DNA of 64,000 bases from Bilabrum cf. latius. Its lineage: Eukaryota. Position numbers and translations under genes: made by a program. A model generated the notes under the pieces. That model was not told the DNA's origin and ran no database searches. It saw only the letters and a list, made by a program, of their open reading frames with translations. Within the stretch, counting starts at the first letter, position 1. Every line of letters starts with the position of its first letter. Positions 9,849 to 63,592 of the stretch are shown in pieces. The stretch lies in the NCBI GenBank assembly GCA_965178125.1, contig OZ237748.1, forward strand, positions 744,001 through 808,000, in the 5' to 3' direction.

Positions 9849-12156
9849 ATGTCAGACCAAGACGACATCGGTGGCACTGCTGGCAGCAGCGATCTCGAGG
9901 GCATCCCGGCCGCCGGTGGAGTGGGGGGCATGGACGAGGAGGAGATGAACGGCCACCTGGATGTGGGGGCGCTATCGCCCGAGGAGCCTGATACTGGGCT
10001 CATAACTTATGTCATTAGTATGCGAGGTCGAGTGATAGAGGCAGGGCCGGCCAAGCGGCGCCCCGGCCGCGCGTCTGTCTTTGCTGCCGGCCAGCTGCCC
10101 GACTCTGCCTCGATGGCCGCAATCGAGGCCGGGCGTATCCCTCCACTGAATCTGCCAGCGGGCAAGCAGGGGACACTGCAAGGGGTAAACGGATTCGTGT
10201 TCGCGGTAAACTTCGCACCGCAAGATTCCGCTGGACCCCTCGGCGAGTACGTTGGGTCTGTCAGTGAGTATCGCAGCGATCCTTACGGCGATTCGTACGG
10301 TGGCTCTTACAGAAGGTCTCGCGGACTAATACGGACTGAGTCTGCGGGGACATCTATTGACCAATCGCCGGTGCCGCTGGCGCTAAAAGGGTTGCTTCCG
10401 TTTGTACAGGGCAACTCGTACTACACGAACCGTTTGTTCGAGTAGCACCGTGAGGAGTGGAGGGTGCCTCAGGTGGTGGGCGGGCACAGGAACATCGTGC
10501 CCGTTAGACACGCATTCTTCGGGTCATCCATGCTGTTGCTGCCTTGGGTGCCCACAGTATTTGTGCAGGAAGGCCAGATCGGAAGGCGCACCACCTGGCT
10601 TGCCATGCCCCTGTACCCCACGAGCCTGCGATCGGCTGCAGGGGACGTGCCTTGCACGGGGCCCAGGGAGGCGGCGCTGTGGCTGCTGCAGGCACTCGAG
10701 GCGATCCAGCACATGCAGACGAGGGGGGCGGTGCACCGGGACATCAAGTCAGACAATTTGTTCCTGGCTGGGGGTGGTCGGCTGGTGCTTGGCGATTTTG
10801 GGGCGGGCTGTCTGCTCTTCCACGGGGGCAGGGCAGCTGACCTGGAGGTGGAGTTCCAGGAGAGGCAGCGGCAGCAGGCGCAGGAGCATGCGGCCGCCAC
10901 AGGTGCAGGTGCAGGTGCAGCTGACCCTGAGATGGGAGCAGCAAATGCAGCAGCAGGGGGCAATGAGGAAGAGGAAGAGGAAGAGGAAGAGGAAGAGGAA
11001 GAGGAAGAGGAAGAGGAAGAGGAAGAGGAAGAGGAAGAGGAAGAGGAAGAGGAAGAGGAAGAGGAAGAGGAAGAGGAAGAGGAAGAGGAAGAGGAAGAGG
11101 AAGAGGAAGAGGAAGAGGAAGAGGAAGAGGAAGAGGAAGAGGAAGAGGAAGAAGAGGAGTGAAATGAAGAAGACGAAGAGGAAGAGGAAGAAGAGTAGGA
11201 AGAGGGAGAAGAAGTGGAGGAAGAAGAGTAGGAAGCTGGCGAGATGCAGATCGTGCCCGGGGAGGCATTCGAGCAGGCAAGGGAGGGATCCAAACACGAA
11301 CCATTCAAAATTGCGTCAGTACACCAAGGTGGTACAGACGATAGCCGATCCCCCGAACTTGATGCTATGGCTAGGAAGAAGGTCACAAAGGACTCGAGAG
11401 GCACGCCGCTCGAGACACTAGCCCAGGCCTACGAGATGTCCGATGCGTGGGCCGCGGCCAAGACCGTGTGGGAGCTGGTTGCGCAAGGGAATGCAGCTGC
11501 GTCTGCCCTCCCCGGCAACGACAGGCTGTACAAGGACTCTGCCATCCCGAGGCTTCCCCAGGCCGGCCGGGAGCTGGAGGCGATCCTGAGAGGGCTGCTG
11601 CAGTCATTGCCCAGCAAGCGGCTGCGGCCCGAGAGTGCCATTGCCGCCCTGCGAGCCCTGTTGTACGGGCCCGGGAGCTGGGAGCAGGTGCAGCGGGCGG
11701 CTGGGGAGGGTGAGGCTGCGAGCGGTGGGATGATGGGCGGGTCCAGCGGTGGCAGTGCTGGAGCTGCTTCGGGGGCTGGGGCGGGGAATGCTGCGTCAGC
11801 GACAGCTGCAGGTGCTGGTGGATCTGGTCTGGTGGAGCTGGTCCGGGGGCAGCTGTGGGAGTGCGCGGCTGTAGACACGGGGCGCAGGGGGGTTGGAGGG
11901 CGTGCCTGCCGCCGGTCTATCTTGGGGCCTGGCCGGGCCTGCTCCCATGGTGCGGCTGCCGATCGGGGAGGAGGCGTATGGGGCGTTCGGGTGGGGTGAG
12001 CGGCGGTGTGTCCCAGGAGAGGCGAGCCTGTGGGACCGGTTTCTGCGGCGAGAGGTGCTGCTGCGGGGGGACGGGGCGGATGGATCTGTGGCTTGCATGA
12101 CCAAGGACTGCGGGGAGCTGGTGGAGGCGTTGAGGAGGTTTGGGCAAGGGGATTGA
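9849..12156 (+). pseudogene. PINK1-like Ser/Thr kinase with poly-Glu insert; disrupted by an in-frame TGA at 11160 and a +1 frameshift at ~11893 (or assembly errors)
   Basis: LALK, HRNIV, HRDIKSDN, GDFG, RSPEL and SDAWA motifs. TAG 10443 links ORFs 9744 and 10464 in frame. The frameshift is seen against the paralog at ~15305. Confidence 0.7.
10965..11159 (+). repeat. (GAGGAA)n coding microsatellite (poly-Glu)
   Basis: About 195 bp of nearly pure GAGGAA. Confidence 0.95.
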
Positions 12157-13211
12157 TCATAGAGTTTTCCATTCAGTGAATCTTTGCGATGCTGCTCACC
12201 CAGTGCACCATCACTCGTTTCGCCATCGCCTTCATCCTTCTCTCCCGTCATGACCGGCATATACGACTATACTCGTATTTGAGGGGCTAGGTTGCCAAAG
12301 GCTTAGGCGCTTTGTACCCTACATCCGTGGGGGGATATATCCTGGATGCTGCTGTTGCGCTGCTGCTGCGTGCGTGCATGCGTCCAAAAATCACAATTTC
12401 CTGCCCCCCCGCGGACCCACTCGGCTTCACCCCGAACGACTGTTTCTTTAACGGTCCACCTGAATGCGGTATTCCTCTGACACTACGAATGTTCTCACTA
12501 CTTTCCCAATGCCCGCGATTGGCCTCGTCGCCACATGGCTTCCTGTTCCTGTTCCCCGCCCTAGGGACTGTGTGCTTTGCTCCCTGTATTGCCACCTTGT
12601 CCCTATCCTTTCAGCTTGCATGCGCCGGTCATGGCAGACCTGCTGTTGGCCCTCTGCGCGCTGCTGGCCATGCATCCAGCTGCCACTCGCGTCTCCCTCG
12701 TGTCTTGCACCTAAAGCCCCATTCCTCCCGTTATGTTCTCCCTGTTGACACCACACTATCGTCGCCTGTGCCGGTGTTCCCTCTGTTCCTCTCCACCTCC
12801 TGTCCTCCTGCGCCCGCCTCGTCTTCCGGCTCACCTCTGCTCCCCGTCGCTTCGATCCTGATGTCCGAGTACAAATGACAAAATCGGATGGTACTTGTCA
12901 CACCACCACGAATTGGCCACCTTGGATCTTGCACATTAAGGTACATTTCGCTTCAAGCGAAGTCTCTCAGGTGAGTTTATGTACAAGTGATGATATCTTT
13001 GCAGCACTAAGCCGCTTTATTGCCCGATTGCCCGACAGCGCCACCCCGTCCATGGACATGCCTGCACAGTGTACACTGCTGTGCACAGTGTGCGATTTCA
13101 AGAATGTATAGGTGCGTGGATTCATTACTGTTACCCGACTAGTTAAAGATTGTAACTGTGCATTGCCGGGGCAAGATGATACAATGAGCGATTCGCCAGT
13201 CTGCTGAGCCA

Positions 13212-15569
13212 ATGCTCTGTTTCTCCTGCGGCTCAGGGAATTACCATTTTGCTCCCTATTTCTTCTGCAGAATAGCAGGAATGCATCACGATGATAGATT
13301 CGCTGAAATTGAAGGCGCTACTTGGCCTGCTGTCGGGAAAACTCGAACTCGTTTAGGCAAGATCGTGTGCTGGCGGAGGGCAGCGGCGGCCAAGAGGGAC
13401 GCCGCGATGGTGTTCCAGGCAGCTGCAGAAGGCAGGCCCATGGAGCTTGCAAAGCGATTGAGACTGGGCAAGCTGGCGGGCGCGACGGAAACCAAGGGTG
13501 CGGTGAGCCTACCAGAAGGGCGCAGCTCCATGTGCTCACCATTGGAGGCAGCCCGATTGGGAGGGCATGACGAGTGCGTGAATCTGATGGAGGAGGCCGT
13601 GGCATACGTGCAGCTGGCCCAGAGCACGGGCCGACACCGGGCTGCTCTTCGGGACAGTGAGCTGGATGCATTGTCGGGTGGTGACTGGTTCCGGCATCTG
13701 CGCGGGCGAATGCAATTTGCTGCGGATAGAAGCGGCCGACTCGATATTAGTACGGTGCTGCCGCCCGAGGAGCTGGAGACTGGGCTGAATGGAAGTCAGG
13801 CCCGTGTGATCCAATTCGGGCCTGCCAAGAGGCGCCCCGGCCGCGCGTCTGTCTTGCCTCCCGGCCAGCTGCCTGACTCTGCCTCGATGGCCGCGATCGA
13901 GGCCGGGCGCATCCCTCCGCTGAACCTGCCAGCGGGCAAGCAATGGGAGGGGCAGGGAATCAACAGCTTTGTATTCGCGGTGGAGATGGCGCGGCGCGGG
14001 GTGCGGGGTGCTGGCGGGGCAGGAGCAGAGGGAGGCGCTGGGTCTGGGGATCGATCGCCTATGCGGCTTGCCCTGAAAGGGCTGCTTCCATTCACCGAAG
14101 GGTACTCGCGCTTCAACTTCCAAAGGATATTATTACAGAGGTAGGCGTGGTCTGTCCCGCAGGTGGTGGGCGGGCACAGGAACATCGTGCCACTGCGGCA
14201 TGAGTTCTTTGGGTCCTCCATGCTTGTGCTGCCGTGGCTGGATCCCTCCTTGATGGAATCAGGCTGGGTTGCGAGGAATACAACCTGGCTTGCCATGCCG
14301 CTGTACCCTACAACCCTTAAATCATCATCCAAAGCTATCGCTTGCTCGGGCCCCAGGGAGGCGGCGCTGTGGCTGCTGCAGGCACTCGAGGCGATCCAGC
14401 ACATGCAGACGAGGGGGGTGGTGCACCGTGACATCAAGTCAGACAACTTCTTAATGGCTGGAGATGGGCGACTGGTGCTGACCGAGTTCGAGTCGAGCTG
14501 TTTGCTATTTTACGGGGGCATGACAGAACCGCTAGATCGGCAGTTCCATAGAAGGCACTTGCAGCGGGAGCATGAGCTTGCGGCCGCCAGAGACGGTACG
14601 ACATACGATGGCGAAGATGAAGGCGAAGATGATGACGAAGGATACGAGGACGATGACGAGAAAGAAAATCCCCAGGAGGCATTCGAGCATGCACAAAAGG
14701 GATCGAATCAGTCACCCTTTATGATTCAGGCTATTCAAGGGGGCGGCTCGCTCTTCAGCCGAGCCCCGGAGCTGTCGGCAATGCTTTATCAGAACTTATC
14801 CAAGGACTCGAGAGGCAAGCCGCTCGAGACACTGGCCCAAGCCTACGAGATGTCCGATGCGTGGGCCGCGGCCAAGACCGTGTGGGGGCTGCTGGCGCAA
14901 GGGGATGCAGCTGCGTCTGCCCTCCCCGGCAACGACAGGCTGTACAAGGACTCTGCCATCCCGAGGCTGCCCTACGCTGGCAGGGAGCTGGAGGCGATCC
15001 TGAGGGGGCTGCTGCAGTCGCTGCCCAGCAAGCGGCTGCGGCCCGAGAGAGCCATTGCCGCCCTGCGAGCCCTGCTGTACGGGCCCGGGAGCTGGGAGCA
15101 GGTGCAGCGGGCGGCTGGGGAGGGTGAGGCTGCGAGCGGTGGGATGATGGGCGGGTCCAGTGGTGGAGGCGCTGGGGCTGCTTCGGGGGCGGGGGCGGGG
15201 AATGCTGCGTCAGCGACAGCTGCAGGTGCTGGTGGATCTGGTCTGGTGGAGCTGGTCCGGGGGCAGCTGTGGGAGTGCGCAGCTGTAGACACGGGGCGCA
15301 GGGGGGTGGAGGGCGTGCCTGCCGCCGGTCTATCTTGGGGCCTGGCGGGGCCTGCTCCCATGGTGCGGCTGCCGATCGGGGAGGAGGCGTATGGGGCGTT
15401 CGGGTGGGGTGAGCGGCGGTGTGTCCCAGGAGAGGCGAGCCTGTGGGACCGGTTTCTGCGGCGGGAGGTGCTGCTGCGGGGGGACGGGCCGGATCAGTCT
15501 GCGGCTTGCATGGCCAAGGACTGCGGGGAGCTGGTGGAGGCGTTGAGGAGGTTTGGGCAAGGGGAGTGA
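13212..15569 (+). CDS. Family module fused to a PINK1-like (pseudo)kinase; 5' end uncertain
   Basis: ORFs 13212 and 14163 are joined by TAG 14142. WRRA..AKRDA...GGHDECV module at the N-terminus. HRDIKSDN is present but the DFG region reads TEFE. Confidence 0.78.
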
Positions 15570-25559: not shown

Positions 25560-25643
25560 ACTGCACGATCTAATACATAAGGCAGGCTCGGGCGGATTAA
25601 AACGACCGAGAGACCTCATGGCTAAAACTGCATTTAGCAGCAC

Positions 25644-41798: not shown

Positions 41799-41810
41799 GA
41801 GACCACAACA

Positions 41811-42077: not shown

Positions 42078-43917
42078 GTGGAGGTCACACCGCCAGCCCA
42101 AGCACCCTATCCTGGCAGCAAAGCACTCTTGGTAAGATGCAACATAAAATGCATATTCTCAACGACTGTATGGGGTCTATTAAAGCTCTTCAATGACCTT
42201 TTTTGCGACTTTTCTAAATCGAAGGAGGGCAAGAACGCATTAATGCGCATCGTTCTTACAAATGATCTAGACATACTCAAGAAGACTTTCCACCTGGATG
42301 CCTCGCGTGATCAAATTGATGCGAGAGATGCTGTGAGGATATTGTGCTGCGAATAGATGCTTGAACTGGCGATTACCACCAGCGGCTGTGAATCACCCCT
42401 CAGTGCTGATCTTCAATGCACGCAGCATGGTAACACTGCACTTCATTATGCAGCTCAGATAGGAAATGATAGAATAATTTCGATGCTTATACGCCGCTCT
42501 TCTGACCTACGGCCACAAAATAATGTGAGCGGGGTTAGAGAGGCATGTACAATCGAGTGGTATTCACGCAGTCCTTTGAAGCCTATCTTTCAAATTCCGA
42601 TTTATTTGTTTGAACAGCCATTAAGTTGCGATTGTTTCCAGGATGCAGGCCGGGAAGCTGCCCTCTGACCTGTGGACGCCGCGAAGTCCGGACGAAATAA
42701 GCTACTCGGGCATCGAGGCAGCTGCATCGACCGTGCCGATGATGGGCCGCTGGGTACACGCAGCAAAACCGCCGGGCAAGCTGAAATTGCTGTTCTCGTA
42801 GGGTGACAGCATTGTTCCAGCTGATGATGAAACGTCAGAGGCCGTGGGCGATATCGCGTAGATTCTAGAGCTAAGCAAAATTGTCGCTGACAACTCTCCT
42901 GAGCTGCATGGCTTGTACAGCAACTTGCGATGCGCTATACATGTCATGGCATCCTTCTTTCGATACGCCCTACGTTGCAAAACCGTCCAAGACGCAGCGG
43001 GAGCAATTCATCAGGCCGCCAAGCTCGCGTCTGCTACCCTCCACCTGGACAAGAACATTAACTCCCGCTAGATGCTTGCGTCGAAGAATTTTGGACTATT
43101 GAGCGGAAGCTTTGAGTCCAGTTTATACCTGGGTCCAATGACGTCTTTGCCAGGGTAGGATGTTAGCAAGTTCTACGTAGGTCTGATCACTGATTCTACC
43201 AAACTTGGAATTCAAGACAAGTTGGCACTGCTCATGTCCATGGCGCGAGATGGTCCTACTACTATCTCCATTCAGGTTGTACGAGATCTGTATAGTTTGG
43301 TGAAGGCCTTCGTATTTGAGCCTTTTCGAATTTTGGAGCCAGGCACCGGCAGTGCAACGATTGTGTAGACTTGCGCGTACTAGCTTGTTTAGCTTCTCCT
43401 TCGCACGAGGGTACAATCCGGAACCTTCGATGACCATACATTCGCGAGCATGACAGGATTTGCTTTTACGCGTGTTATGGAGGAGGCCAAGTACATGACC
43501 CCCCGAAAAAGGTCGGAAATTCTACATGCCGCAGGTCCTGTCTGGCAAGACGACAAGACCAGCTGGAGTACGTTTCCAGCGAGCGGCGAGCCGTGCATCA
43601 GCTATCACGGAGATGATACGGTGGTTAGTTCCCCGCTTTTAACAGAGCTTCGAGTTCGTGATCGACGCAAGCTGGTTCGCTGGAGGAGGGCAACCGAAGC
43701 AGAACGAGACGCGGGCAGGGTCTTCCGAGCGGCAAGCGAGGGGAGGCCCATGGAGCTGGAGAAGCGGCTGAGGCTGGGCAAGCTGGCCGGCGGGTTGCAG
43801 ATCAAGGGTTCGGTAGCAGAGAAGGGCGGGGCCAAGCGAATGATGCTCCCCCTCGATGCAGCCCGCCTTGGAGAGCATGACGAGTGCGTGAAGCTGCTGG
43901 AGGAGGCTCTGGCATGA
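42078..43917 (+). CDS. Ankyrin + central unknown domain + C-terminal module protein (5' end uncertain)
   Basis: Ankyrin exon 42426-42524 (GNTALHYAA); long last exon with several TAG; module ends TGA 43917. Confidence 0.78.
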
Positions 43918-44144: not shown

Positions 44145-46209
44145 ATGATCCAGTCATGTCTGGCTTGCTTAGGATTTACAGATCAATCGTAGTCCCCAAG
44201 AACAGTATCAGTACTTGAGAATGACACTGGGCCACCATAGGCGGAGCGCACTGGGAGCGAAGCTGAACAGATACTGCACGCCCAGCTGGCCAATAATATG
44301 CTCCACAGCAAGCACTATTGGAAAGTAGGAGACAGTGTGAGGTATATTGTCAAGCTTTTGCTTCTTGCACATATCCACTATGCTATTCTGTTTGACACTT
44401 AAATTTACTCCAAAATTGCTATAATGCACCTGCAGCAAGGAAAGAATGCGCTGATGCATGCCGTGCTCGCTGGGGATTTAGATTTGTTTGAAATTAGTTT
44501 ATTCAGATGCGTTGCTGCTGGGCAGCAAGATGCCAAAGACAATGTGAGAGATGTGCTGATTCTGGTTCAACACTAGGACGAAGCAAACTACATCTACTCC
44601 AGAGGGAAAGTGACAGTTTAGCCCAGTTTGCACACGATCCATGCGACCTTGCAGAGTGGGAACACCGCGTTGCATTACGCAGCTAAGATGGGGCGGCACG
44701 ACATGGTTGCTATGCTGCTTCGCAATTGTACCGAACCGAGGCCATTAAATCACGTAAGTGATGGCTTTTTTTTTTTTTAGCGAGGACCGCGCAAAGCCTT
44801 ACAATTATTGCTCTAATAAACTCTGCGAAAGCCATATTATGTTTGCATGCCGCTAGTGAGTGCAGGAGGGCAAGAAGCCTATTGACCTGTGGCCAAGCAG
44901 GGGAGGGGGCGTGGGCCTCCGGTACAGCTTAATCGAGGCAGCGGCATCCAAAAAGCCTTGCGTTGGGCCAGTCGATCGTATCGTGTGTGGAGTGACAATT
45001 CCCATGAAACTTAGACTGCTCTATTGGCAAGGAGACAGCGTGAGTCCTCGGGAGGTCCTTGCATCGGGCGTGATCGGCGGAATCAAAGAGATGCTAGAAT
45101 ACAGCAAGACTCTTCCTGACAACTCGATGAAACATGTTGGGATTTACAGCGCACTGCGTTGCGGGTTGCACGTCGTCGCGGCTCTCCTACGACTCAGCTG
45201 CGCTACAAAATGCCAGCGTGAAGCCACCGATGGAATCCGGTCGGCTGCTAAGCTGGCCAGTGCGATTCTCCACCTGCCTGACAATAAGGACTCAAAACAG
45301 CTGCTAGTTAGGTAGAAGCACGGTATATTTAGTGCGAACAAAGAAGCAGTGCTATACACCGGGCCTACTACCAGGTTTCCGCCTTCTGGTGCTGGCAAGT
45401 TTGTCGTTGGTCTCCTCACCGATTCTGCAGAGCTTGGCATCTAGGACCTCGTGTCGGCACTCACGTCGAGGGTATTGACAAATAGACCATACGTTCCTCT
45501 CCAAGTTGTGCAGGGCCTGTTTCGGCTTACGGCGGCATTTGTGCTTGTTCCGTTCCGAATCGTCACCTGCACTCCAGGGTTGCACACGCCGGTGCAGACC
45601 AGCGCCAGGCAGATCATGCAGCTTCTGCTGACCACTCGCGTGCAGTGCGTGCCTAACGATGAGCAAGTGATAATTAACATGGGCAGGATGTGTATTGATG
45701 CAGTGGTAAAGGAATCGCGAGACTTTTGGTACGCAAAGACCGAGGATATTCTCCACCCCGTACCTTGCGAGGATTCAACGCCTATCTTCATTAACCCGCT
45801 TAGCGGTAAGCCCTGCTGCTACAACTATCCGGATGGTTAGTCAAAACATTTGCGCTCGTCTTGGGAAAATGAAGCTTCACGTCGAGATCGAATGAAACTA
45901 GCTCGATGGAGACGAGCAGTAGAGGCCAGGCGAGACGCAGGGAGAGTATTCCGCGCAGCTGCTGAGGGCAGGCCGCTTGAGCTGGGCAAGCGACTGAGAC
46001 TGGGCAGGCTGGCAGGTGGGTTGGAGATCAAGGGGAAAGTAGACGGTACTACTGCCTCTGTGGGACCGCTGTAGGCGGCAAGGCTTGGGGGGCATGCCGA
46101 GTGCGTGCGGGTGCTGGAGGAGGCTATTGCGGAACTGAAGGCCAATCACACACACACAGCCCTTCCGATGGTCACCAGAGGCCTACATGTAGTCTACCCC
46201 CACGCGTGA
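44145..46209 (+). CDS. Ankyrin + central unknown domain + C-terminal module protein
   Basis: Exons QGKNALMHAV.. and GNTALHYAAKMG... ORFs 44860, 45451 and 45850 are joined by TAGs; TGA 46207-46209. Confidence 0.78.
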
Positions 46210-46706
46210 AACTCGCGAGGACTAATGATATTCAGTATTGATGCCGGAGATGGATGTCTAGTTTCTGCTCCGGGTTGAGGTCCTCTGTGTTGGGCCATTG
46301 TAGCTTTGAGGAGGCTGGAACGGACTACCTGGTCGGCGGGAGTACATTGATGACAATCATGTCGATACTTATCCTCTGCTAAGTTAATCGAATTATTTTC
46401 GGCATGCAGAGACGACTATCTCCAGTTAAATCTATAGTTTCGGAAGATGAAGATTAAATTAACTAGACTAGAGTCTAGCCCGGGCTAGGCAGACTTCTGT
46501 ACGGTGCCTGGCCTGGTTTATAGAGACATGTTGACAGGCAGTTACAAGCAAAGTACTTCTATAAGGCACTGGTTACAACTGAGCTGGCATCAAACTTCTG
46601 GAGTTCCGTGTAGAACGTTCTATCTTCGCGAACCTTCGCTTCGAATTCCCCACCCAGATCTGTCCCCACCCCTTCCATTTATACTCCCACTATTAGGTTC
46701 TAAGTT

Positions 46707-48784
46707 ATGGATTCAACCATTCGATTAGGGCTCGCAGTATCTATTGATACGCGAAACTTACTACCAGACACAATTGATGATCTTAAAGGCGTCCATTGGA
46801 GGATGGTACGGCATCGTTCTAACGCAGTGGCGGTCGTCGACCTAACACAGTTTGTACAAAATTGTGGTGGGGCGAATATACCGCTGAATGGAGTAAGTAG
46901 ATTTCGCAATTATTCACTGCTTCGCAATGACTTTTTCCGGCAAGAAGGACTGAGGCGCTAGCGATGCGTCGGGTTTGTCCGGTTGGACAATATCTACTTG
47001 GTTGGTTTACTTGCATGCATCACGCAGGCCGGCCACAGCCTACCTATGATTGCCATTATTTGCAAGGATGTAGGAGTCTTGCTAGACATGATCGAACGTG
47101 GAATCAAGGTGGATGAAGCCGCTCGTGATTGTGTAAGCACATGTTACCCCGACCAAACTCTTTCATGGTGCCGCGTTGCTGTGTCTCTGCTCAGCTTATG
47201 CAACGCATTCATTTTATTTTATTTGTTCTTGTAGTTGATGAACAATGTTCTCCACCACGCGGCCTTGTCAGGAGATGAAGCCATCCTGGGGACGGTGTTG
47301 CGACTATGCAACGACATTGCGCCACTGAACGCGGTGAGTAGTACACGCAGAGTGCTGCCTATGTGTAGATGCAGTACGACCAAATGCAGATAATATTAAG
47401 CTGCGCGGCCATCATTTCGGAGCATGAATGCCATCGATCACCATCGGCCACCATCCAGAGCTAGACTAAAGAGTGCCCGTGTGCAACTGCCTCGCAGAAC
47501 GCGAAAACGCCAAGGGACCTGTGGCCCAGTTCTCAGCAAAGTTTCGATAGGGTCCTTGCCGAGACTGCCTCTTACCCTACACCAGCCATGTGCAAAGTAC
47601 CAGTCGCTCGGTAGTCGCACATCACACTCATGATGAAAATGACGAGAACGATGGAGGCGATGGACGTTAACCGGATCCGAATCATCAAAGAGCTTTTCTT
47701 GGTGCAGGACTTACTCGGCGCCATTCGCAACCGGTCTCATTCCATGACGCCCAGCGATGAAATCGTCCTGTACAGCATGTGCCGGTGCACTCTGCACGTC
47801 GTCTTCCGTCTGCTTGTCAATTGCATGGCCTCGCGAACGACTTGGGAAGCATGCGACAACCTACACTACGCTTGTCTTCTGTTAAAATGTGTGCTGCCGC
47901 GCCATGATGACCGCATGAAGCACCTTTGCAGAGTTCCGGAGCTGTGCTGCACAGCACGTCAGCCAGACCAGAACATCGGGTGGTATACTTGCACTGCCAT
48001 TCGCATACCAGATCACGAACCGGCCAATAAGTACCACCTGGGTCTTTTAACAGATTGCTTGAAGCTCAACATCCATGCAGCCACAGCGGAGGCCATATAG
48101 TCGGTGCATGCGCGGCATAGAAGTGATCCGTTTGTGCCGTCCGTAGTGTGTCAGGACGGTTGCAGTGCCATGGAACGTCTCGTGTTTGAGCCAGTCGCAC
48201 TGTTTCGAAATGCCGATCTTTTGCGTGCAGCTCGCCCCATGTTGTCTGCATTGGGAAGCCTATGTATGCAAACGAGAACAGCATCAGCGGAGCAGGTGAG
48301 CACGATTCTTACGCGCATGGTGCTGTTCGAGGCAGCCCAGATGTTTGTCCCGCGTATCGAGAGATCTGCTCTTCCTGGGCAACTTGACCAGACGAACTCA
48401 GAAGCAGCAATGGACGGACCCGAAGTGCCGTACTGTGCGACTCTTGATGAGCCACTGAGGCAGCCCACGCGAGAGTCGTTCATCAGCCAGTTAGACAGTC
48501 GCTTGGAAGAGATTAAGAAGAATGACAGAAGGACTATTGTGCGATGGCGAAGAGCCGCAGATGCTGAGCGTGACGCTAGGCTGGTGTTCAATGCTGCCAA
48601 AGATGGGAGACCCATGGAGCTAGAAAGACGGCTGAGGCTTGGCAAGCTGGCCGGTGGGCACGAGCGCCTTGGAATGATGGACCAGAATGGCAATCAAGAG
48701 GCATCATGGGCATGTCCCTTGGCGGCTGCTGTGCTTGGTGGGCACACAGAATGTATCCAGCTTCTGCAGCAAGTATTAGGCTAA
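46707..48784 (+). CDS. Ankyrin + central unknown domain + C-terminal module protein
   Basis: Exons at 46707, ~47028 and ~47235. ORFs 47630 and 48104 are joined by TAG; ends TAA. Confidence 0.72.
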
Positions 48785-48931
48785 ATTTTATTCGAACTCC
48801 AAAAAATACATGGTGAATCTTCACACAAGGTTCGGTCTGGATTGGCGAACGTTCTTCAGGTATTTCTGGTGAAGACTCACCGTGAAGAACGTCAAGTCCG
48901 GCCAGACTGCACAAAACTTGCAACGTTGGCA

Positions 48932-50944
48932 ATGGAAGACAGTAAAAGTGGCGCTATCAAGCTTTTTGTGTCTGACAAGACCGCGATTTGCATCAGTGAT
49001 TGCAGGGATGGATTGCAGGAAGGCTTGGCAACGCTCGCACAAAATTAGACACCAGAGACAAACGTGACTAGAGAATTGATCGACCTCATTGGTTCCATTA
49101 ATTCCAAAATAGATAGAGTGAGCTATATTCTAGTGCGAGCATGCCAATATCATCCAACATGAATCACTATATGAGCCGATCTTGTCATTTCCATTTCTAG
49201 GCACGCATCCTAGCTCATTCCCACAGAAGGAGCGAACAATCATAATGATAGCACTAGCTAGCAAAGATATAGAGCTTAGCAAACAACTGTTTGCGTTGGG
49301 TGCGAGCAGCAGCAAGAAGCACAAGGACATCGTGAGGCGTGGATTGGCGGCTTGAGGCCGTTGCATATCATCATGTTCTTACATTACCTCACCACCGCAT
49401 TGATCAGATGTATGTATATTCCTGCGAAACAAACTAGTTATGTTGCGCAGATGGGCAGCACCGCGCTGCACTACGCGGCAGCTTCCGGCGACCCGTCCCT
49501 TCTAGCGATGACAATGCGGCACTGCGACGATCCGGCCCCAACAAACGACGTGAGTGCTAATGCACGCGTGCAATTGGTGGCACGTAGTACGAACCATGCT
49601 TTCCTAAGATGGAGCTGCAGGCACGATCGGTTATTTTGTTTTGTTTGGGTCGCCACACACGGCCTACTAGTAGAGCATCCTCGCCTCACCTCCTCCTATT
49701 CTTCCGCAGTACGGCAGCACACCAGAGCACCTTTGGCCAGGGGAGGCAAGCAAATTCCACGCAGTCGCTGCTGCTACTTCGCCCAGGCCATTTCCGCACT
49801 CTACAGTCTCCAATCGCTCCAAGTTCACGGGCTACCTCGCGGTCGAGCTGGAGCGGTTGATGGGAGTGCTGAACGACAAGCCGAGGCCAGCGAAAGTGCT
49901 TGCACTTGTGGACGATTCGAGGATCTGCGAGGCATTTAGCCATGTGCTGAACAGAGAAGGGGACATATCGCCCGAGAAAGAGACTACGCTGTACTCTTAC
50001 TGCCGGTGCGGTCTTGGTCTCGTGGTGCCTCTGATGCAAGGCGCCCTGGAGCTGAAGGATGACACGGACCGACTGGAGTGCTTGGAAGTGGCGACTTAGC
50101 TGATCGACAAAATAACCAACACAAGCCCGGACGTTGGAAATCGGTTGCTGTACCAGAAGAACTTCGGCCGGTTCGGAACTGCACCAGATACGGGGCTATA
50201 CGTCGGTGAACACACGCAATTCCCTCCCTCCGGTGCTGGCAAGTACACTGTGGGGCTGATCACGGATTGCGTGCAGCTAGGGCTCTACGACATGCTAAAA
50301 TAGGTTCTCGAGTACACCAGGGCTACTAACCAAGCAGCCGTTTGCGTGCACTCCTCAGCCCGGTCGGCCTTTTGCTTTGGCCTCGTCCATATACTGCTGC
50401 TGGCCCCTCACAGGATCTTCCACAAAGAGTGGTTCGCTGATAGGGCGACAGGGATGATTAGCAGTGCCATCATGCGATTCATGGACACGCGTGTGTCCCC
50501 TGTCGATGATGAGGCGTTGATCACAGAAGTCGATCGGATTGTGCGATGGGAGCAGAGCTTCGTGTCGAGGGATATCCTTCCCGACGGCTGGTGCCACTCA
50601 TTCGCTCAGCCCAAGAGGGCAGACGGACCTGAGGAGGTCGACCGGCAGTATAAGGAATGGAAGGGAGATTTCCGTATCCGTGACAGAACTAAGCTGGCGA
50701 ACTGGAGGAGGGCAGTGGAGGCCAAGAGGGACGCTACGATGGTGTTCTAGGCAGCGAGTGAGGGCAGGCCACTGGAGCTGGCCAAACGACTCAAATTGGG
50801 AAAACGTGCGGGCGGGCTAGAGATGAAAGGACACCTTGCGCCTGCGGGTGCAGGCGAAGCGCCTCGGAGTGTGGTACCGATCATGCTGCCAGGTTGGGTG
50901 GTCACGACGAATGCGTTGAGCTGCTGGCCTAGGCCATGGGCTGA
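48932..50944 (+). CDS. Ankyrin + central unknown domain + C-terminal module protein (1-nt frameshift ~50882)
   Basis: Ankyrin exon 49451-49549; FPPSGAGKYTVGLITDC; the module's AARLGGHDECV lies in a shifted frame. Confidence 0.72.
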
Positions 50945-51356
50945 AGTCATGCCTGGAAATCTGGGAATTGTTGTAGAGTTTATAGATTGTAGCAAATGAA
51001 GTAAAAGATCCGATCCGGGATGCGGACCTACCCAGGCCACATCCTAGGCCACATCGGATGTGCTATTTAATTTTGGCAGGCACGCACCGAACCGAAACAC
51101 GATTTCTACATTTGTTGTAATCCGGATCAAGCACAATCAGCTCCGAACACTTGGCAGGGCGCCCCAGGATCATGCGCCGCTATTGAGCACTAGTCCGGCA
51201 TTCCAAACTTCATGTAACTAGCTGCAGCGGCCAACTGGGCAACGCGATCGCCACCACATTGAGGAGGCCACGAAGGGTGAAGCTGTGCAAGCTGACGGGC
51301 CGGCGGCATGTTCCGACATGATTGAACTGCTCTCCTGCGGCCAATTCAATCGTCCT

Positions 51357-53426
51357 TCACATTGCTGACTTGCCTGCAGTGTGCAGAACTTCCACGCACT
51401 TGTCATGCCCGCCAACTCGGGCAGCTTCGATTGGCAACACTAGTCTACAGGCTGCGCCATCAGCCCCTGCCTCGCTGACCCTGCCCTTTATCTCCAGTCC
51501 ACCAGCCAACTTGCCAAGCTTCAGCCTCTTTGCGAGCTCCATTGGTCGGCCGTCCCGAGCCGCCTTGAAGACCATGGCAGCGTCCCGCTTGGCCTCCACT
51601 GCCCTCCGCCAGCTCACGAGCTTTCGACGATCTCTCACCTTGAACTCTTTCTTCCACTCCAAATAGGACGCATCCGGGTCTAGATCGGGGTCCGTGACTT
51701 TATTGAATAGAAAGCTATCTAACATATGAAGCACTCCATTCTAACGCAGCAGTGCCTCAAACTCAACCAAACGGTCCACTATACGTATTGCCAACGTGTC
51801 ATTGCGGTCTGATCGGCGAGTCTCCAATAGTCTCACTGCGATTACTTCAAGCATGATACCAGATCCGGATGCGGTACAGTGCCAGCGTGGTTGAAAAACC
51901 CGGAATGGCACAACTACTAGACGCTACAAAAGCTTAGAGCGGCGGTATGTACTATGCAGCACACCGTTTCTATGCGTTTTTGCGACATTTGTGTCCATAT
52001 CCAGCAGCAGCTTGGCAAGCGAGTCAAAGGCTCCAAGTTGCATGCAATCTGTGACCAGCCCGACGAGGTATCTGCCAGCTCCAGATGGTGGGAATCGCGT
52101 GAGGGCACACGTATACATCCATGCACCATTCGCGTCGCCATACATGCCGAATCGAGGGTGATTCAGGAGCTTGTTGCTTTCTCCAGGCTCTACGTTGATG
52201 ACGACGTCAAGTATCGACATCACCGCAAGCAGGCAATCTTCTCGAGACCTATACGTATCTGCCTTCACCGCCCTTTGCAGCAGTGCTGCCACGATACGAA
52301 TGCACGTCCGGCACATGGAGTATAGCGTCGTCTCCAACTCCGGGGAGATGCTATCTTGCCGGACAAGCACTTGAGTGAGAGATTCAACAAGCCCAGAGCG
52401 TCGTACACGGGCAATTGTCTTATCAATTCCGTGATTTCCGTCAATGTACTCAATCAACCTGTTCAACTCTACGTGTAGGTATCCAACGTGGTTAGAGAGG
52501 TCCGGTGCCGTACTGAGGGGTAGAGGGCACGGCGCGGCGATAGCGGCAACCTCATCAAATTCGCCGACGCCACCCGACCATAGCTATCTGGGTTTGCTAC
52601 CATACTGCAAGTGTGTATTCAAGATATACATATATATATATATATATATGGTTATATAACCCTAAGATATATACCAGTAGTAGCGAGGGGTGGCTTAGCA
52701 GGTACTGTCACGATACACTTCGCGATGCATCACAAGTCTGACTGCCCATATCAGCAGTATCGGCCCTTTGACAATGACCAATCGCTAATAAACTTATTTC
52801 ACAGCGGACTTGGACAGTGCTTGCCCTCACCTCGTTCGTTGGAGTGGGGTCGCCGCACTCGCGAAAAATGAGGGCGAGCAGCTCGGCGTTACCAGACGCT
52901 GCAGCGTAATGCAGGGATGTGCTACCCATCTGTAGCCGTGAAAAACTATTGAAATGTTGAGCGTGATGCGTGTTCAATCCTAGAATGGTTGGGACGGTAC
53001 TGGCAGCCGAAGAGCGGCATCGCGGCCGGGTTTCAATACGTGCTCACCAAGTCACGGTACTCTTTTCCTGAACTTGCACTAAGTTTAATAAGATTGCGGC
53101 ATAAATCTATATCGTTGGACTGAAGGGCAAGCATCAGAAGTGTGCGCCCTTTCTGCGAAAATGTGCAGGTGTCCCCAACAGCGTGAAATATATCGCTATA
53201 GCCACTCCATATCGAATCTAGGCGACTAAATATTACTCACAGTATCAATACGAACGTTCGGATCATTAAAATAGGCAACAACATCATCTACTTGTGCTGC
53301 TAGAGGTATGTAGCCTTTGCATACGTGGCCCACGAGCCCCTCCCGTACGTGGGGAAGACATTCACTGATTTGTAGCTTAGTCTTTCTTGATATTTGTACG
53401 AATTTATGTTTTTCTTGTACTGCCAT
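51357..53426 (-). CDS. Ankyrin + central unknown domain + C-terminal module protein
   Basis: First exon is homologous to that of the 48932 gene; GSTSLHYAAASG; FPPSGAGRYLVGLVTDC; module ends TGA. Confidence 0.76.
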
Positions 53427-53937
53427 GGAGTATGGAGGTTTCCCTTTCGATCTAGACAAGGAAAGGTTTGATTGTCCCACTTTGCAAGGAATGTTCGTGG
53501 CCAGTCGAAACCTCCTGACCTGTGTGCCAGCACCCCTACGTTCCAGCTTGCGAGAACCATTCAACGATTGCATAAATTGAGCTCCCGCGCCGATTCACTA
53601 CGGTTTGGTAAGGGTGGAGAGAGTTTAACTGCTACGTTCAAAGTTTACAATGCGTCAGCCGTTCCACCATCCCGAGAATGACAAGTTTTATTCTTTAAAA
53701 TCTCGGGGAATTAGGGCACCCATGATTGGTGAGGCCGGCAAGGTGCCTGAGACTGAGGTCGCGCGGTGGGTGCAGGACCCGCTCGAGGTGCAGGCTCAGA
53801 TGTGACGTGGCGATGCGGAGGAGTGAGATGGAGAGAGCGGCTAGGGAGTGAGACAGAGGGCGGCTCCGGACGATACCAAGCAGAGATTGAAGACTGACTG
53901 GGCGTGATATGGCTCTGGTATTCACAACAGGTCGCTC

Positions 53938-56577: not shown

Positions 56578-59565
56578 TCAACCCTCCGCCAGGATGCCCT
56601 CCCACGCCCCCACGTGCGTCGTGCTGCCCCTCCTCCCCTTGCCGTATTTCAGCCTCTGCCGCTCATAGTAGCTCAGCTCATCTTTCGGATCCCTAGACCG
56701 CAGCTGGTTCCAAAGCATGCGACCCCCCTTGGCCGTGCCCCCATCGTGGGGGGTGGCCTCCTCGCTCCCCTGGGTGTCAAGCCGGAACGATTTGAAGGTG
56801 GCCAGCCGGCGCCTCCACAGCCGCGCACCCTCCACCGTGTCGTCCTCGTCCTCGCTTTCGGCTCCGAGTCCCATGGCCGCCCTGGCCTCGGCGTCCTGCA
56901 CCAGGGCCAGGAGCTTCTTGGCCGGCTCCGGCCCCGCGATCCTCACGATCCGATCCCTGACGTCAGCGACCCTCCTGTCGATCTGCACCATCACCTGCGG
57001 AATCTCGTCACCCTCCTTGATCTCCCTCCCCAGGTGGTATTCCCACCTGTCGTAGGCGGCTTCGTACCTCTCTAGCAGCTCTGCCATCTCCACCACGTTC
57101 AGTCGGGCGGCGTGCTGGGCCCTCACCGGCAGGCTGGCGAGGATGATTTCCGATTCCGAATACCCTGAGGGTGCGGCGGCCAGGGGCCCAGCACTCCCAT
57201 CCGCAGCATCGGCGCCGGCCCCCCCCTCCTGGTGCTTCTTCTGCTGCTGCTGCTGTTGTTCCTTGGCCGCGTGCTTGAGGAGGTGCCGCGCTGATTTTCC
57301 GCTCCGGATCCCGCCCAGCAGAGCCGTTGAGTCCGCGGCCTCGAACCCCTTGGAAGAGGCCGCCGTGGCGCCGGTCATGACCGAGTGCGCGGCGCCGCCA
57401 CCTGCGGAACCAACTCCTGGCGGGGTCGCGTGCGGGCTGAAGCTCTTGCCCTTGGCACCGAACACACTCCCATGCCCGATGAAGATGCTGCCCCTGCCCC
57501 TGCCCTGGCTCTGGGCCCGCCGCAGCGCCGCCACCTCGGGTGTGGGTGGACCTGTCGCGGGCGGCAGCAGGAGGGCTCGGTCCGTGTCCGACTCGGAGCC
57601 GGAAGTCCGGCGGGAGCCGGGGCCGGTGACGACTTCCGCCACCGGCTCCAGCCCCCCTGCGGAACCACCCCTGGAATGCGCGGCGCCGGGTCCGGTACCG
57701 GCGGGGCGCAGTCCCCGGCGGCGGCTCGGGGACAGTGCGGAACCATCCACAGTTGCGCGGCGCCGGTTGACCCCCCCGCTCGTGGGTGAAGCGATCCCAC
57801 CACCACCCGACGACAAGAACGATGATCCGATCCCAGTTCCGGTAATTGTGATGGTCCTACCCGGGTCGTCCGTGTCCTTGGGGGACTCGGAGCCGGGCGG
57901 CGGGGGCGCAAGGCCCGGCCTCATGATGCCCTCCGCCGCTTTTCGGGCAGCCACCGCCGCGGCCGTGGACACCTCAGCGTCCGGGTCAGGCGAGCCGGAC
58001 CTCCTCGCCTGGATAGCGGCAACGACAGGGCTGCTCCGATCGGGTGAGGCACCGGGGAGCGGACCGATTCCGCTGCCCGCGCGGCGCCGCGCAGTTCCGC
58101 TGCCGCCTCGGCTGCTCCGGCCCGCCCTATGGTGGTGGTGCTGCTGATGCTGGTGCTGGTGCTGGTGCGGTCGGGAGGAAGAGGATGAGATGGCCGGACC
58201 TGCTGGCCTGACTGCATCGGCGGTTCTGGACGAGGGGGGAGAAGAAGAAGAAGAATAAGAGGACTGGCTCTGCTGGTTCCGTAGGAGCGCATCGGCAGTG
58301 GCCAAAGCCGCAGCTTCGGAGGGATTCAGCTCCGGGTTGTCCTCGTTTTCCTCCTCCTCCTCCTCCTCCTCGTCGATGTCTTCAGCTGGACTGGCCGCGC
58401 CGGCGCCGCGCACTCCCGACGGAACCGACCCCATCGCCGCCGTCGAGCCGATGTCTTCATCCCCGCGGGTCGCGGCCTGAGATTCGGCTCCGAGTCCGTC
58501 GGAAGCCCCGGTTCCGTTGTGCACCAGTGCCTCCGCCTCCATGCGGCGCCGCGCAGCACGGGCCGCTGCACGCTCCAGAGGGCCCATCCCACCACCGTGC
58601 CCTGCACCCGCACCCCCAAGCACCCCATCCTCGTCATCACTCGTCACACCTCCCCCATCGTCCGCCCTCTTGGCGTCGGCGGCCTCCTGCAGCACCGACT
58701 CCCAGGCGCCGGCGAATGCGGTCGACCCTCGCCTGCCCCTTCCGTACCTGACCTGCTGCCGCTGGTAGTAGGAAAACTTCTCCTGGCCCGTCCGAGCGTG
58801 CTGCTCGTCCCACACGGATTTGTTCCCTCGGCGGGTGGGGTGCGAGTGCAGCGCATGGCGGTACGCGGACACCCTCGCCGGCTGCCTCCTGTCGAGCTTC
58901 CGCACCGCCAGGCGTCCCTCCTTCTCGTCCTGCACGAAATCTTCATCTTCGATCGCGGGCATGGCCAGCTTCCCCTACAGGGACGGATCCTCCCTGAGTC
59001 TCTTGAGCAGGACGGGCGCCATGCCTGCCCCCACCGCCCTCTCGATCGCCTTCTTGTTCTCCATCAATGACAGCCGAAGCACGGCCATCACCTCAGGCTC
59101 AACGTCGGCCTCCTCCTCCCCCCCCAGCCGCACCGCGTCCCCCAGCCGCTCCTCCAGTGCCCTCCATCGCGCGGCGAGATCCAGCCTCTCTACACACAGC
59201 TGCCTGGCAGCAAGGGCCTTGGCCTTGGGGAGTCGGGACAGGAGGGTGCCCACCGTCCCTGCGCGGCGCCCGCCGGCGGTTCCGCTGGCACCCGTGGATG
59301 CGGCGGCTTTGGCGCTGGCGGTGAACCGCCCCAGCCTGATGACCTCGTCACTCGTCACATTGGCGCGCTCGCTGATGGCCTGTGAGAAGCTGCGGGAGGC
59401 GATGCTCTGGGCCATCCCGTTGGCCCCGATGAGTCGTCGCATCGAGGGCTGCCTGCCGCCGCGCTGTTCCCTGGATCCTTCTGAGGGGGCGTAACCCCCC
59501 ATGGAGGGGGGTCCAGCCCCCCTGCCCCTGCGCCCGCCGTCCGTCGATGCCACCGACACCGACAT
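56578..59565 (-). CDS. Intronless low-complexity protein (~995 aa) with a twice-repeated domain; function unknown
   Basis: ORFs 59565 and 58962 are in frame via TAG 58975. Repeated motif YY.RQ...YG.GRRGST...GAWE..L.E. Confidence 0.7.
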
Positions 59566-60798
59566 GCCACACCTAAATGCGGCTTGCTACGACTGAGTGC
59601 GCCAATGCAGTCTCAAGCGAGACGCAACTAAGACTGTTCAAGTCTATAAAAAATAAACAGAGCACAAATCGCTGAGTTCCAGCGATCCAACGATGCGCCG
59701 CTTGCCTCGTTCAATGGCCCGACTCGGTCCCTGGGTGAATTCCCAAACCAGAGGGATACTACCGCGTGTGCAGTGCAAAGCCAGCTATACGTAGCAATAT
59801 ACTAATGCCTGCAGGCAGGATTGATTATCTACGCCTGTCCTGTGCGGGGGTCCTGGTCCCGGCCTGTCCTGCGCCGAGCCAAACACGTATCTCAAACCGG
59901 CAAAGAGCAAACGCAGCTGCTGTGGCGCAACTAGATAACACACACCAAGACAACCGGTATTTAAATAGGAGTCAGCCAAATCCTGCCAGTGACTCGCCAG
60001 TTGTCTGCTTGCAATGATACGATACACTTGCTCCCGCTGTTTGCTTGCGACCGAACGGAAACTATACGGAACCGGCGCCGCAAGCGAAGCGAACCTTCGA
60101 TACAGCGTCAAATCGGACCTTGGCAATTCATGCCTATTCGATCACTTTCTAAAGTTTTTGGGAACTTAAACCCTGTAAGAATTGATCAAAAGTTTTTGAG
60201 TTAAGATTTATTGCACTCAATTATGGATTTTCGCCGGATACCTCGAGATTGTAGTGACGTGCTCGGCTACGAAACCTCTCTTTATGAATACAGCTAGCAT
60301 TTACCAGGTCATTGACCGTGAGCTCTCAAATACTGTACATGGTGGCTGTTGTAGTGCTATCATTTGGAAGTATAACCGCGCGCACTGATTGCATGTATGG
60401 TTTTTACCTTTGAATGCAATGTTGCCACGCATACTAACAGAACCCAAGGACAATGTTAACCACAATTATATGCTTCAATAATACAATGAATACATGACTG
60501 TTCGTGTGATTCATCCCTCCGGCGCATGATTTCGCTGTTCTCTAAGGTCTGCTAGGTGGATCCCCCAAATCGAGATGTCATGGAGGCATCCTAGAAGGCC
60601 CAGCACTGACGAGAGAAGCAAAAGTCGTCTTGAGATTAGTATAGACAGCATGAAATGTGATGATCCTGATATAGTAAGAGTGCAACACTTGCACGCATTC
60701 GGATGCTTTGGCTGTGTCAGATTTGTAGAGGTCAACTGTCTCTGTACATGATCCATGTCCAATCTCGATTGATTTTCAACGCCAAATCAAACGTCGCA

Positions 60799-63592
60799 GC
60801 AACAAGCCCTAAAAGCTGCACAAGACCGCATAAAGTGGCCGGGTGGACCTACCCTGGAAGAATCACGCGAGCTTCTATCTCTGTACCTCGCGGGAGGTGG
60901 AGACCCAGCCCGCCGCCACCCAGAATTGATTTATGTTAGCATTTGCGGCGTTTATAGCACCCGAGCAAATGGTCACCGTCCAGTAATGCATGATGTACCT
61001 TGTGGATTTGTGCTGCGTTGCAAGCTTTACCTACATTTCCACGGGCAGTACGGACGCGCGTGTATTCACTTTGCCGTGCTCGAGGGACAGTCATGCTTTG
61101 TGGAAGCATTATTAGAGCTAGAATGCGGGAGCGTACAAGCTGCCATACAGGACAGTAACGGTGTAAGTTTAGCGTATGACGGAGGTTGATTTGGTTTGCT
61201 CCGCTCAAATGTGCATGAAGACTCCAGCGCATTGCTCCCGCCATACTACACACAATTCTTGATATCCCTTGTAGTCAACTGCACTGCACCTGGCGGTGAG
61301 GCAATACCCAAAAGGTGGTGACCTTAGAAATACAGAATTGCTGCTGAGCGCCGGGGCAGATCCATCGGTTCTGGATCACGTGAGGCCAGTGTCATAAGGC
61401 GCCTTCGCACGGGACGCATAATTGTCTCGAAAACGCATGCAACCGTGTCAGCAGCAGCCCGCTATTCAATGTGCAGGGTGGCAGAAGCCCGATTTGGTTC
61501 GCGATTGCCAGCAAACGGACATACATTACTCGGCTGCTCTTAGAAGCATGCCCCGACCCGAACCCAATAGTGTCTGTGAGTAGCTCCCGGACACCTCTAC
61601 ATTCAGTTTGCTTAGACCAGTCGATTGAATTCAGTCTTTCCGGCTAGGATGCAGCATCTTGGTAGAACCATGCAATTGCTAATTTGCCGGACGGGGCTCC
61701 CCATTCGCAGCCGAGCAGTACGGCTCTGCAGCTTGCTGTGATGCATGACGCAGTTAGCGATACTGAGTACATCCTCGCCAACGGTGCTGACCCTGACGGC
61801 AAGTCAGCAGTAAGAGAATAGCCGTACACATATCAAATTATAGCACGATCGATGTTTTGGGAGCAAATGTGTGTCCGGCTCCTGCATCCGGCCCGTGCAC
61901 GCAGGACGGGCAGCCACTCCTGCACACTGCTGTACGCGCCTCCAGCCGGCCGTGCTAGCTGGCTCTTCTCCAAGCAGGCGCAGATCCTGGCCAACTGACT
62001 AAGGCGAGCACTTGTATATGATTGTTCTATTGGAGTTTCGAAACTTCTTCAGCCCTACTGCTGCTCGTATTCATGAAATGATGTGTCGAATTGCACTGTC
62101 GATGCGTATTGCTAGATTCTGCACACTGTGTTGCATGTCACGTATCTTGTTGGTACAAGTACACTGTATCGCAGTCCGGGTGGACGTGCTACGACTCTGC
62201 TCTTGTCATGAGCAAACCAACAATGGCATAGCTCATGTCAGGCTCTGGTGTATATGGTCTGCAGAAAGGCCCTTACGAAGTGAGGTCGTGTGCGTATATT
62301 TCGTTGTCACACAGTCGGCCTGTGCACCATACTTGAAGGATCACTAGCCAGAATAAGACGTCATTGCCTCGCCTCTTTGGATGCAGCTGCCGTCCTCCAT
62401 AGCAAGAATCAAAGCAGCAGCAATCGACTGTCCAGGATAGTGTTTTGACTCATTTGTTGCGTCTGCCAACGGTACGAAGCAAGACGGGGTAAGAACTGAC
62501 AACCATATTGCATCCATTCGTTCTTCTGTATGCCATGCAGACTAGTCTTGCAACGTTACATCAAGTATAACCATTGTCACTTTTCCTCACAGGAATTGCT
62601 TTCGCCAGTCTAGCGTGCTACCATGAGCAAGCACAGCCGCTGCGTCAAGGCGCTTCTGGAGTATGGCGTCCCAGGCGACGAGACGACCGATGTAAGGCAT
62701 GGCTCAACTACTAATCGTTGCCTGTCTGAACCACCGGGGTTGGTGGACATCAAGCACTGTACGTCCTTCAATTTTGGATAGTGGCCCTAACACCAGCTTC
62801 ATAAGTGTCGGGATTTCACCCGTGGCGCTTTCCCCCCGCAGTACGGTCAGAGTTTAGTGCATCTTGCGACTGGGAGTGTCGGTACGATCCAGGAGCTCAT
62901 CAAGGCTGGATGTTCAGTGCATGGGAATGACAGGGTATGGCATGGTCAATGTGCAAGACGAGTTATGCTAGATGTGCGCACACTAGATTTCTCGTATATG
63001 TTAGCTGCTTTTCCATTGTGGTGCAGGGCGGGAGCACACCTCTCCATGATGCAGCCGGCAAGGGCTGCATGGCATCATGTGCTCTACTAGTAGAGGCAGG
63101 ATGCGATCGATGCGCGACAGACAACGTGAGCACAATATGTGCAAGAGTTCCAGTGATTTCGGGACAGCAAGTCGTATGCATTGCATTGCTCGATACCGTG
63201 TGCCCATAGCAATGTGAACGGTTGTAGCCATTGCGAACATTCTGCATTTGCAGGACGGTCTACGGCCTGACCAGATAGCATCGAGGCGGGGATACCACTT
63301 TGTGGCACGTCGTATTTGGACCGTCCCCTCGCCGAGGTAGGTGGCCGTCATGCGGTGGAAAGTGGCGCAGCAGGCCAAGGTCGATTCCAAGCTCTTGTTC
63401 ATTTCGGCAGCATATGGAAGACCCATGGAGCTGCGCAAGAGGATGCACCACGGCAAGCTGGCCGGTGGGCTGACTGCTCGTCGGCCACTCTAGACAGGGG
63501 AAGGTGTGAGGATGGTAACTCCGTTGGAGGCAGCCAGACTTGGAGGGCATGACGAGTGTGTGAAACTGCTAGAGGATGCAATGGGGCGGTGA
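60799..63592 (+). CDS. Multi-exon ankyrin-repeat protein with conserved C-terminal module (5' end uncertain)
   Basis: Ankyrin exons such as 63027-63125 (GSTPLHDAAGKG). The last exon holds the module with two in-frame TAG and ends TGA 63590-63592. Confidence 0.75.

Follow-up and report, generated by a model that had tools for sequence, protein, structure and literature searches.

In the 64,000-nucleotide stretch of Bilabrum cf. latius DNA analyzed here (assembly GCA_965178125.1, contig OZ237748.1, positions 744,001 to 808,000 of the forward strand; hereafter the window), TAG very likely has a sense meaning in the host, most probably that of glutamine, while TAA and TGA remain terminators; this is a known kind of code. 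The window is composed of two parts: GC content is ~30% from base 1 to ~9000, where a virophage-like element is located, and 50-65% over the remainder. The GC-rich part belongs to a eukaryotic nuclear genome, as is shown by its GT..AG introns, its retroelement and its families of ankyrin and kinase genes. It contains two genes for PINK1-like kinases, a retroelement encoding reverse transcriptase (RT) and RNase H, two long tandem arrays, and many ankyrin-repeat genes that have in common a C-terminal module of ~60 residues, present in 10 copies. A first-pass annotation of the same stretch, prepared from the letters only, had proposed that TAG is sense and TAA is stop, and the proposal is borne out: spliced transcripts keep TAG, the in-frame stops of the host paralogs are exclusively TAG, homologous C-termini end in TAA or TGA, and the virophage genes agree.

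The in-frame evidence from the host comes from five tandem paralogs of the ankyrin family (g1-g5), located at 42.6-53.4 kb and sharing 27-46% identity. Across their 2,545 codons, for which three of the five paralogs (g3, g4 and g5) were read along exons defined by RNA, the stops in frame number 20 TAG, 0 TAA and 0 TGA; the +1 and +2 frames of the same DNA contain 41 TAA, 134 TGA and 65 TAG (65/240), and with these out-of-frame proportions as reference the chance that all 20 in-frame stops would be TAG is P = 4.5e-12. On the plus strand, g1 is represented by a last-exon open reading frame (ORF) at 42652..43917, with TAG at 42799, 42859, 43069, 43156, 43366, 43381 and 43390 and a TGA terminator, and g2 (44860..46209), which also terminates in TGA, has TAG at 45313, 45442, 45838 and 46072. 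The g3 transcript (46697..48823, plus strand; exons 46697-46892, 47028-47132, 47235-47332 and 47497-48823) splices to an ORF of 559 codons that has TAGs at 47612 and 48098 and terminates in TAA at 48782-48784. For g4 (48906..50999, plus strand; exons 48906-49117, 49227-49331, 49451-49549 and 49710 onward) the spliced ORF has 567 codons, TAG at 49046, 50097, 50301 and 50748, and TGA at 50997; for g5 (51357..53438, minus strand; exons 53241-53438, 53048-53152, 52831-52929 and 51576-52604, the last prolonged as far as the stop at 51357, and the end at 53438 estimated from the length of the X5 contig and not from a listed piece) it has 549 codons, TAG at 52584, 51924 and 51741, and a TGA terminator. 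Raw stop-to-stop frames take in intron sequence and therefore count too many TAGs; thus the raw frame 47279-48784 contains five TAGs, but only two are in the spliced g3 coding sequence and the other three are intronic. The length of host ORFs does not discriminate among the stop codons either, for in GC-rich DNA freeing TGA gives longer ORFs than freeing TAG. A filtered six-frame self-BLAST search served only as a control of sense versus antisense frames: the matching segments in paralog sense frames contain TAG only, except for one TGA situated one codon beyond an ORF edge, whereas those in antisense frames at paralog loci contain TAA, TAG and TGA. A homolog search with g2 returned only two partial matches, both confined to the C-terminal module.

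The retention of these codons in processed transcripts was read from contigs of sequencing runs X5, X6 and X7 (three runs from two studies), which skip eleven stretches of 88-226 nt having GT..AG ends (CT..AC for minus-strand genes), none of which is skipped by the DNA run X1. The splice joints of g3 are found in X5 and X7, and those of g4 and g5 in X5, X6 and X7; on account of these joints it is argued that X5-X7 are RNA. The exon-joined ORFs of g3, g4 and g5 contain 2, 4 and 3 TAGs, respectively, and no TAA or TGA, and the other two frames of the same spliced sequences are full of all three stops. TAG is retained in frame within spliced host mRNA. The letters of TAG-bearing exons are identical in contigs of four runs, and in g2 an X5 contig (44905-46016) spans three TAGs with 0 differing letters. 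Since the 11 TAGs covered by the listed run contigs show 0 differing letters with respect to the window, there is no sign in those contigs of RNA editing of UAG. The internal exons of g3, g4 and g5 (47028-47332, 49227-49549 and 52831-53152) are 98-105 nt long, approximately one ankyrin repeat each, with introns of 88-226 nt between them. At the 3' end of g4 (50890-50999) the gene's own frame loses the conserved 'AARLGGH.EC', and its last ~25 codons seem frame-shifted with respect to the paralogs; another frame reads 'AARLGGH.EC' followed by TAG, three codons and TGA. This end suggests a frameshift by a single base or a fault in the assembly, and the RNA contig over g4 stops at 50731, short of it.

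Termination was examined at the C-terminal module, of which 8 of the 10 copies terminate within a few to ~30 codons of its 'LEEA'-type end, six at TGA, two at TAA and none at TAG; of the other two copies, one runs on into a kinase domain and one, in g4, looks frame-shifted. The two TAA terminators named in the first-pass annotation, at 48782-48784 on the plus strand and at 20178-20176 on the minus strand, each lie a few codons past this conserved end, the latter (in an ankyrin-module gene) directly after 'LEDAAR'. Over the gene ends examined (8 host, 6 virophage) TAG accounts for 0/14 and TAA for 7/14, a sample small enough that rare or context-dependent TAG stops could have escaped it. As a glutamine codon TAA is found in frame 0 times, compared with 24 TAGs in virophage ORFs and 20 in host genes.

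The virophage-like element, which extends past the left edge of the window, offers a sharper test of TAA as a stop, given its AT-richness and its strong preference for codons that end in A. It contains a gene for a virophage-type major capsid protein (137..2023, plus strand; 628 codons; Pfam MCP_V20_C, E 3.2e-07), with in-frame TAGs at 443, 638, 1022, 1187, 1301 and 2009 and a TGA terminator, and a gene for a primase-helicase (4132..6930, minus strand; 932 codons; Pfam Prim-Pol, E 8.6e-14), with 11 in-frame TAGs and the terminator TAA at 4132-4134. The six virophage ORFs (137-7173) together contain 65 CAA, 2 CAG and 24 TAG codons and no in-frame TAA, and terminate in TAA (5/6) or TGA (1/6). 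When TAG is freed, frames of 942 and 638 codons open in this region, compared with at most 254 codons when TAA is freed and at most 282 when TGA is freed. If TAA were a glutamine codon it would be frequent in an AT-rich element of this kind; TAA is not sense here. The counts suggest that TAG is effectively the G-ending glutamine codon of the virophage, having almost replaced CAG, and that the element has undergone long adaptation to the host code. No relatives of the major capsid protein were found in the viral contig collection searched. In two capsid relatives with 86-88% identity (P0002 and P0003) Q occupies 8 of 12 TAG cells, and these were not counted as evidence because the database includes the protein of this very window in a translation that already reads TAG as Q, such that the Qs of the relatives may themselves be TAGs.

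Identification of the amino acid relies principally on the primase-helicase, which was searched against 1.84 billion representatives and gave 948 matches; the residue table was prepared from 149 of the best 150 of the 948 homologs, having ~30-37% identity, with an 87%-identical relative left out. Among these 149, the residue opposite TAG is Gln in 132/147 at column 355, in 145/149 at column 580 and in 80/148 at column 435, and at columns 355 and 580 no Glu is recorded. These three columns, out of 11 with TAG, lie within clean motif blocks, and six of the remainder are variable. Log-odds summed over all 11 TAG columns are positive for Gln alone (+4.2), Lys being next at -12.2; Ser and Leu score -16.4 and -18.6. 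As a control, sets of 11 columns with true Gln put Gln first in 121 of 200 samples; the method is thus of limited power for Gln, and even so Gln was what it selected. In the host, TAG was compared with the residue of the nearest paralog at 18 alignable columns, which hold Q at 6, K at 4, S at 3, E at 2, H at 2 and D at 1, corresponding to BLOSUM likelihoods of 19.9 bits for Q, 12.7 for E and 12.0 for K; TAG faces Q at 6/18 columns and true Gln codons do so at 9/40. Between g1 and g2, Q stands opposite TAG at 6 columns and E at 1. The individual sites cited in the first-pass annotation (TAG at 42799, 43069, 46072 and 50748) are all present in the sequence, and the paralog alignments quoted there were reproduced with MAFFT: LLFS(TAG)G with LLYWQG, NSR(TAG)ML with DSKQLL, MVF(TAG)AA with MVFQAA, and PL(TAG)AAR with PLEAAR or PLDAAR. 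The assignment to glutamine proposed in that annotation is the best reading, decisive in the virophage helicase columns and moderate in the host paralogs. It rests mainly on the virophage, because the host has some Glu-looking sites and because the CAG-TAG transition inflates Q pairs, and it may be extended to the host because the same translation system must read the virophage genes. Codon usage in the five host genes gives 27 CAA, 32 CAG and 20 TAG codons (TAG, 20/79) and no in-frame TAA.

Several observations weigh against the proposal that TAG is glutamine and is no longer a stop. Only 14 terminators were examined, and an occasional TAG stop is possible among others. Two in-frame TGAs occur (at 11160 in the first kinase gene and at 39669 in the retroelement), so not all frames are clean. 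Helicase TAG columns 265 and 680 are hydrophobic (I/L) in the homologs, possibly through misalignment by one column next to a Leu. Support for Gln over Glu from the host by itself is moderate, at ~7 bits; the column of TAG 46072 is dominated by Glu and Asp, with E or D in 7 of 8 alignable module copies, and TAGs 11196 and 11229 lie inside a poly-Glu run. CAG and TAG are one transition apart, and fresh nonsense mutations would equally put Q opposite TAG. The RNA status of X5-X7 is only guessed, X5 being labelled 'probably DNA' and no run being recorded as RNA, and the virophage-host junction near 9000 is a putative one. Genes for housekeeping proteins, tRNAs and release factors are absent from the window (with Pfam run in all six frames over 16000-25999 only), and for this reason we infer, and do not observe, the genome-wide scope and the mechanism of TAG reassignment.

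These points were weighed against other accounts of the same data. A TAG of two meanings, which would be read as an amino acid within genes but would also end translation close to the 3' end of an mRNA, would follow the pattern of the ambiguous, context-dependent codes of Condylostoma and karyorelict ciliates, and the 14 gene ends (8 host, 6 virophage) place only a weak bound on it, as an absence of TAG among them would arise by chance in ~2% of cases if TAG were a quarter of stops; with 0/14 terminators being TAG, and TAA and TGA available and used at homologous ends, this account is nevertheless unlikely. That TAG is sense but encodes Glu in the host, or ambiguously Gln and Glu, draws on the same column of 46072, on E being the second-best residue by likelihood, and on the two TAGs that interrupt a GAG/GAA run; the latter had been described in the first-pass annotation as lying in a Glu run, and are indeed found at 11196 and 11229 in a GAGGAA run. 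The Glu-looking sites are real but few. The two conserved helicase columns, with Gln in 132/147 and 145/149 of the best 150 of 948 homologs and no Glu recorded, the lead of ~7 bits for Q over E in the host paralogs, and the ratio of six Q to one E in the g1/g2 TAG columns make a Glu assignment very unlikely.

It could also be supposed that TAA and TAG are both Gln (National Center for Biotechnology Information (NCBI) table 6 type) and that TAA is merely rare, as it would be in any case in a GC-rich host; joint reassignment of the two codons is the usual situation according to PMC11687900. Against this, the 30%-GC virophage has no in-frame TAA and 24 TAGs despite its 65 CAA and 2 CAG, 5 of its 6 ORFs end in TAA, and freeing TAA extends none of them past 254 codons; in the host, two modules end in TAA where six others end in TGA, and TAA is missing in frame from genes with 27 CAA, 32 CAG and 20 TAG. 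We regard a joint reassignment as highly improbable. Least credible is the suggestion that the in-frame TAGs are artefacts, whether of mis-assembly, of introns left in place, or of pseudogenes in which CAG has mutated to TAG. It would accord with the rapid evolution of these tandem paralogs, with the seeming frame shift near the end of g4, with the in-frame TGA of the first kinase gene, and with the finding that three of the five TAGs of the raw g3 frame are intronic. A cluster of pseudogenes would be expected to show three kinds of stop, decay of frames and no processed transcripts, but the 20 stops in frame are without exception TAG (P = 4.5e-12, as above), spliced transcripts exist and keep the TAG-bearing exons with the same letters in contigs of four runs, and the virophage genes show the same pattern independently.

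The other features of the GC-rich part include the two kinase genes, both on the plus strand. The first (kin1, 9627..12100) encodes a PINK1-like domain and has TAG at 9669, 10443, 11196 and 11229; its in-frame TGA (11160-11162) lies inside the poly-Glu run, after which homology to the second kinase gene resumes in the same frame. Read-through, a sequence error within the repeat or a mutation that truncates the gene may account for this TGA. An intron that would remove it was considered and rejected, since neither candidate GT..AG span (40 and 73 nt) has a length divisible by three. The second gene (kin2, 13188..15569; TAG 14142) encodes an N-terminal ankyrin-like module (MVFQAA, PLEAARLGG) fused to a kinase domain. 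Among solved structures the host kinases (searched with 14145-15566) come closest to PINK1, with E ~1e-11 over the part from N-lobe to catalytic loop only; an identity as Giardia-type NEKs, which would point to Fornicata, was rejected since the best solved relatives are PINK1. A kinase ORF translated with the standard code matches only generic kinase clusters in a protein atlas. The retroelement (36843..41831, minus strand) consists of an upstream ORF of 720 codons with 4 TAGs and a downstream RT/RNase H ORF of 941 codons with 6 TAGs that ends in TAA. Its RT gives a Pfam RVT_1 match with E 3.8e-05, below the gathering score, and a homolog search with the RT region gave no matches. The two ORFs share a frame and are separated by a single TGA (39669-39671, minus strand), which may resemble the gag-stop-pol read-through arrangement or may be due to chance. 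A long low-complexity ORF of 1019 codons (56578..59637, minus strand), without a Pfam family, is open only when TAGs 59589 and 58977 are read through; it is weak support for a sense TAG because GC-rich DNA yields long ORFs anyway.

Two tandem arrays lie between the kinase genes and the paralogs: one at 27864-30483 (329 bp x 8, 97% matches) and one at 31293-35780 (128 bp x 35, 87% matches), the latter yielding long spurious ORFs in several frames. Word depth in DNA run X1 rises from ~18 to 216-450 over copies of the C-terminal module (43313-43783, 50378-50848 and 53675-54145), with many loose ends, and from this jump the module is highly repeated across the genome. The six-frame Pfam scan of 16000-25999 returned ankyrin repeats only, and hence no housekeeping gene within those limits; across the 64-kb window ARAGORN found 0 tRNA genes and an Rfam scan found no families, including rRNA.

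In mechanistic terms, cytoplasmic translation of the host very likely reads UAG as sense, most likely as glutamine, and terminates at UAA and UGA, an assignment that corresponds to NCBI table 15, as reported for Iotanema spirale. Because all known stop-to-sense reassignments work in this way, a tRNA-Gln with anticodon CUA, together with an eRF1 that is blind to UAG, would be expected. The integrated virophage-like element very probably depends on the host translation system and has adapted to its code.

A code of this type is already known, and is rare. For UAA and UAG together as Gln (table 6) there are many examples, comprising many ciliates, hexamitin diplomonads, some ulvophytes, Streblomastix strix and Amoeboaphelidium; the present code is like these in the reassignment of a stop to Gln and unlike them in that TAA never occurs in frame and ends 7 of the 14 genes examined. 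Over a single 64-kb piece the host DNA combines 50-65% GC with GT..AG introns of 88-226 nt, ankyrin exons of ~100 nt, tandem repeats on the kilobase scale and a retroelement, a combination that is probably unlike ciliate macronuclear genomes. According to PMC11687900, UAG alone is Gln in I. spirale, in the ciliate Protocruzia tuzeti and in two phyllopharyngean lineages, and the present code resembles those of P. tuzeti and the phyllopharyngeans in that UAG alone is reassigned, and to Gln. In I. spirale (Fornicata), as described by Panek et al. 2017 (PMC5304391), UAG is Gln, UAA and UGA are stops, UAG terminators were not found, UAG supplies ~8% of the Gln codons, and the main terminator is UAA. 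The present case is like I. spirale in that UAG is Gln and UAA is kept as a stop, and possibly also in a lack of UAG terminators (0 of the 14 ends here); it is unlike I. spirale in that TAG makes up 20/79 Gln codons and 6 of the 8 host modules end in TGA, albeit in a small and atypical sample, and this contrast in codon use is only a hint that the organism here is a different one. Reassignment of UAG to Leu in the rhizarian exLh and to Ser in Scotinosphaera, as cited in PMC11687900 and PMC5304391, is similar in that UAG is sense and UAA is stop, but Leu and Ser score -18.6 and -16.4 on the helicase TAG columns, compared with +4.2 for Gln. A precedent for a virophage that follows its host's code is provided by the endogenous viral elements of S. 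strix, which use the host's table-6-type code according to PMC10120064. The literature searched, which included few subscription journals, describes no UAG-only Gln code for a GC-rich non-ciliate or together with a virophage.

Reassignment of UAG without UAA is rare, and bears on how eRF1 can lose one of two codons that are normally read together. A case that unites a resident virophage with transcripts and intron-bearing genomic DNA would be a new system in which to study the changes in tRNA and eRF1, and would show in what way viruses and virophages follow the code of their host; standard-code gene calling on this genome would truncate many genes. A possible, though tentative, further proposal is that the host lies outside both the fornicates and the ciliates, in a GC-rich, intron-rich protist lineage that arrived independently at UAG = Gln with UAA as stop, and that the virophage (TAG 24 vs CAG 2), and by implication its giant virus, co-evolved with that code. 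If this were true, host, virophage and giant virus would form a system of three partners, all tied to one non-standard code.

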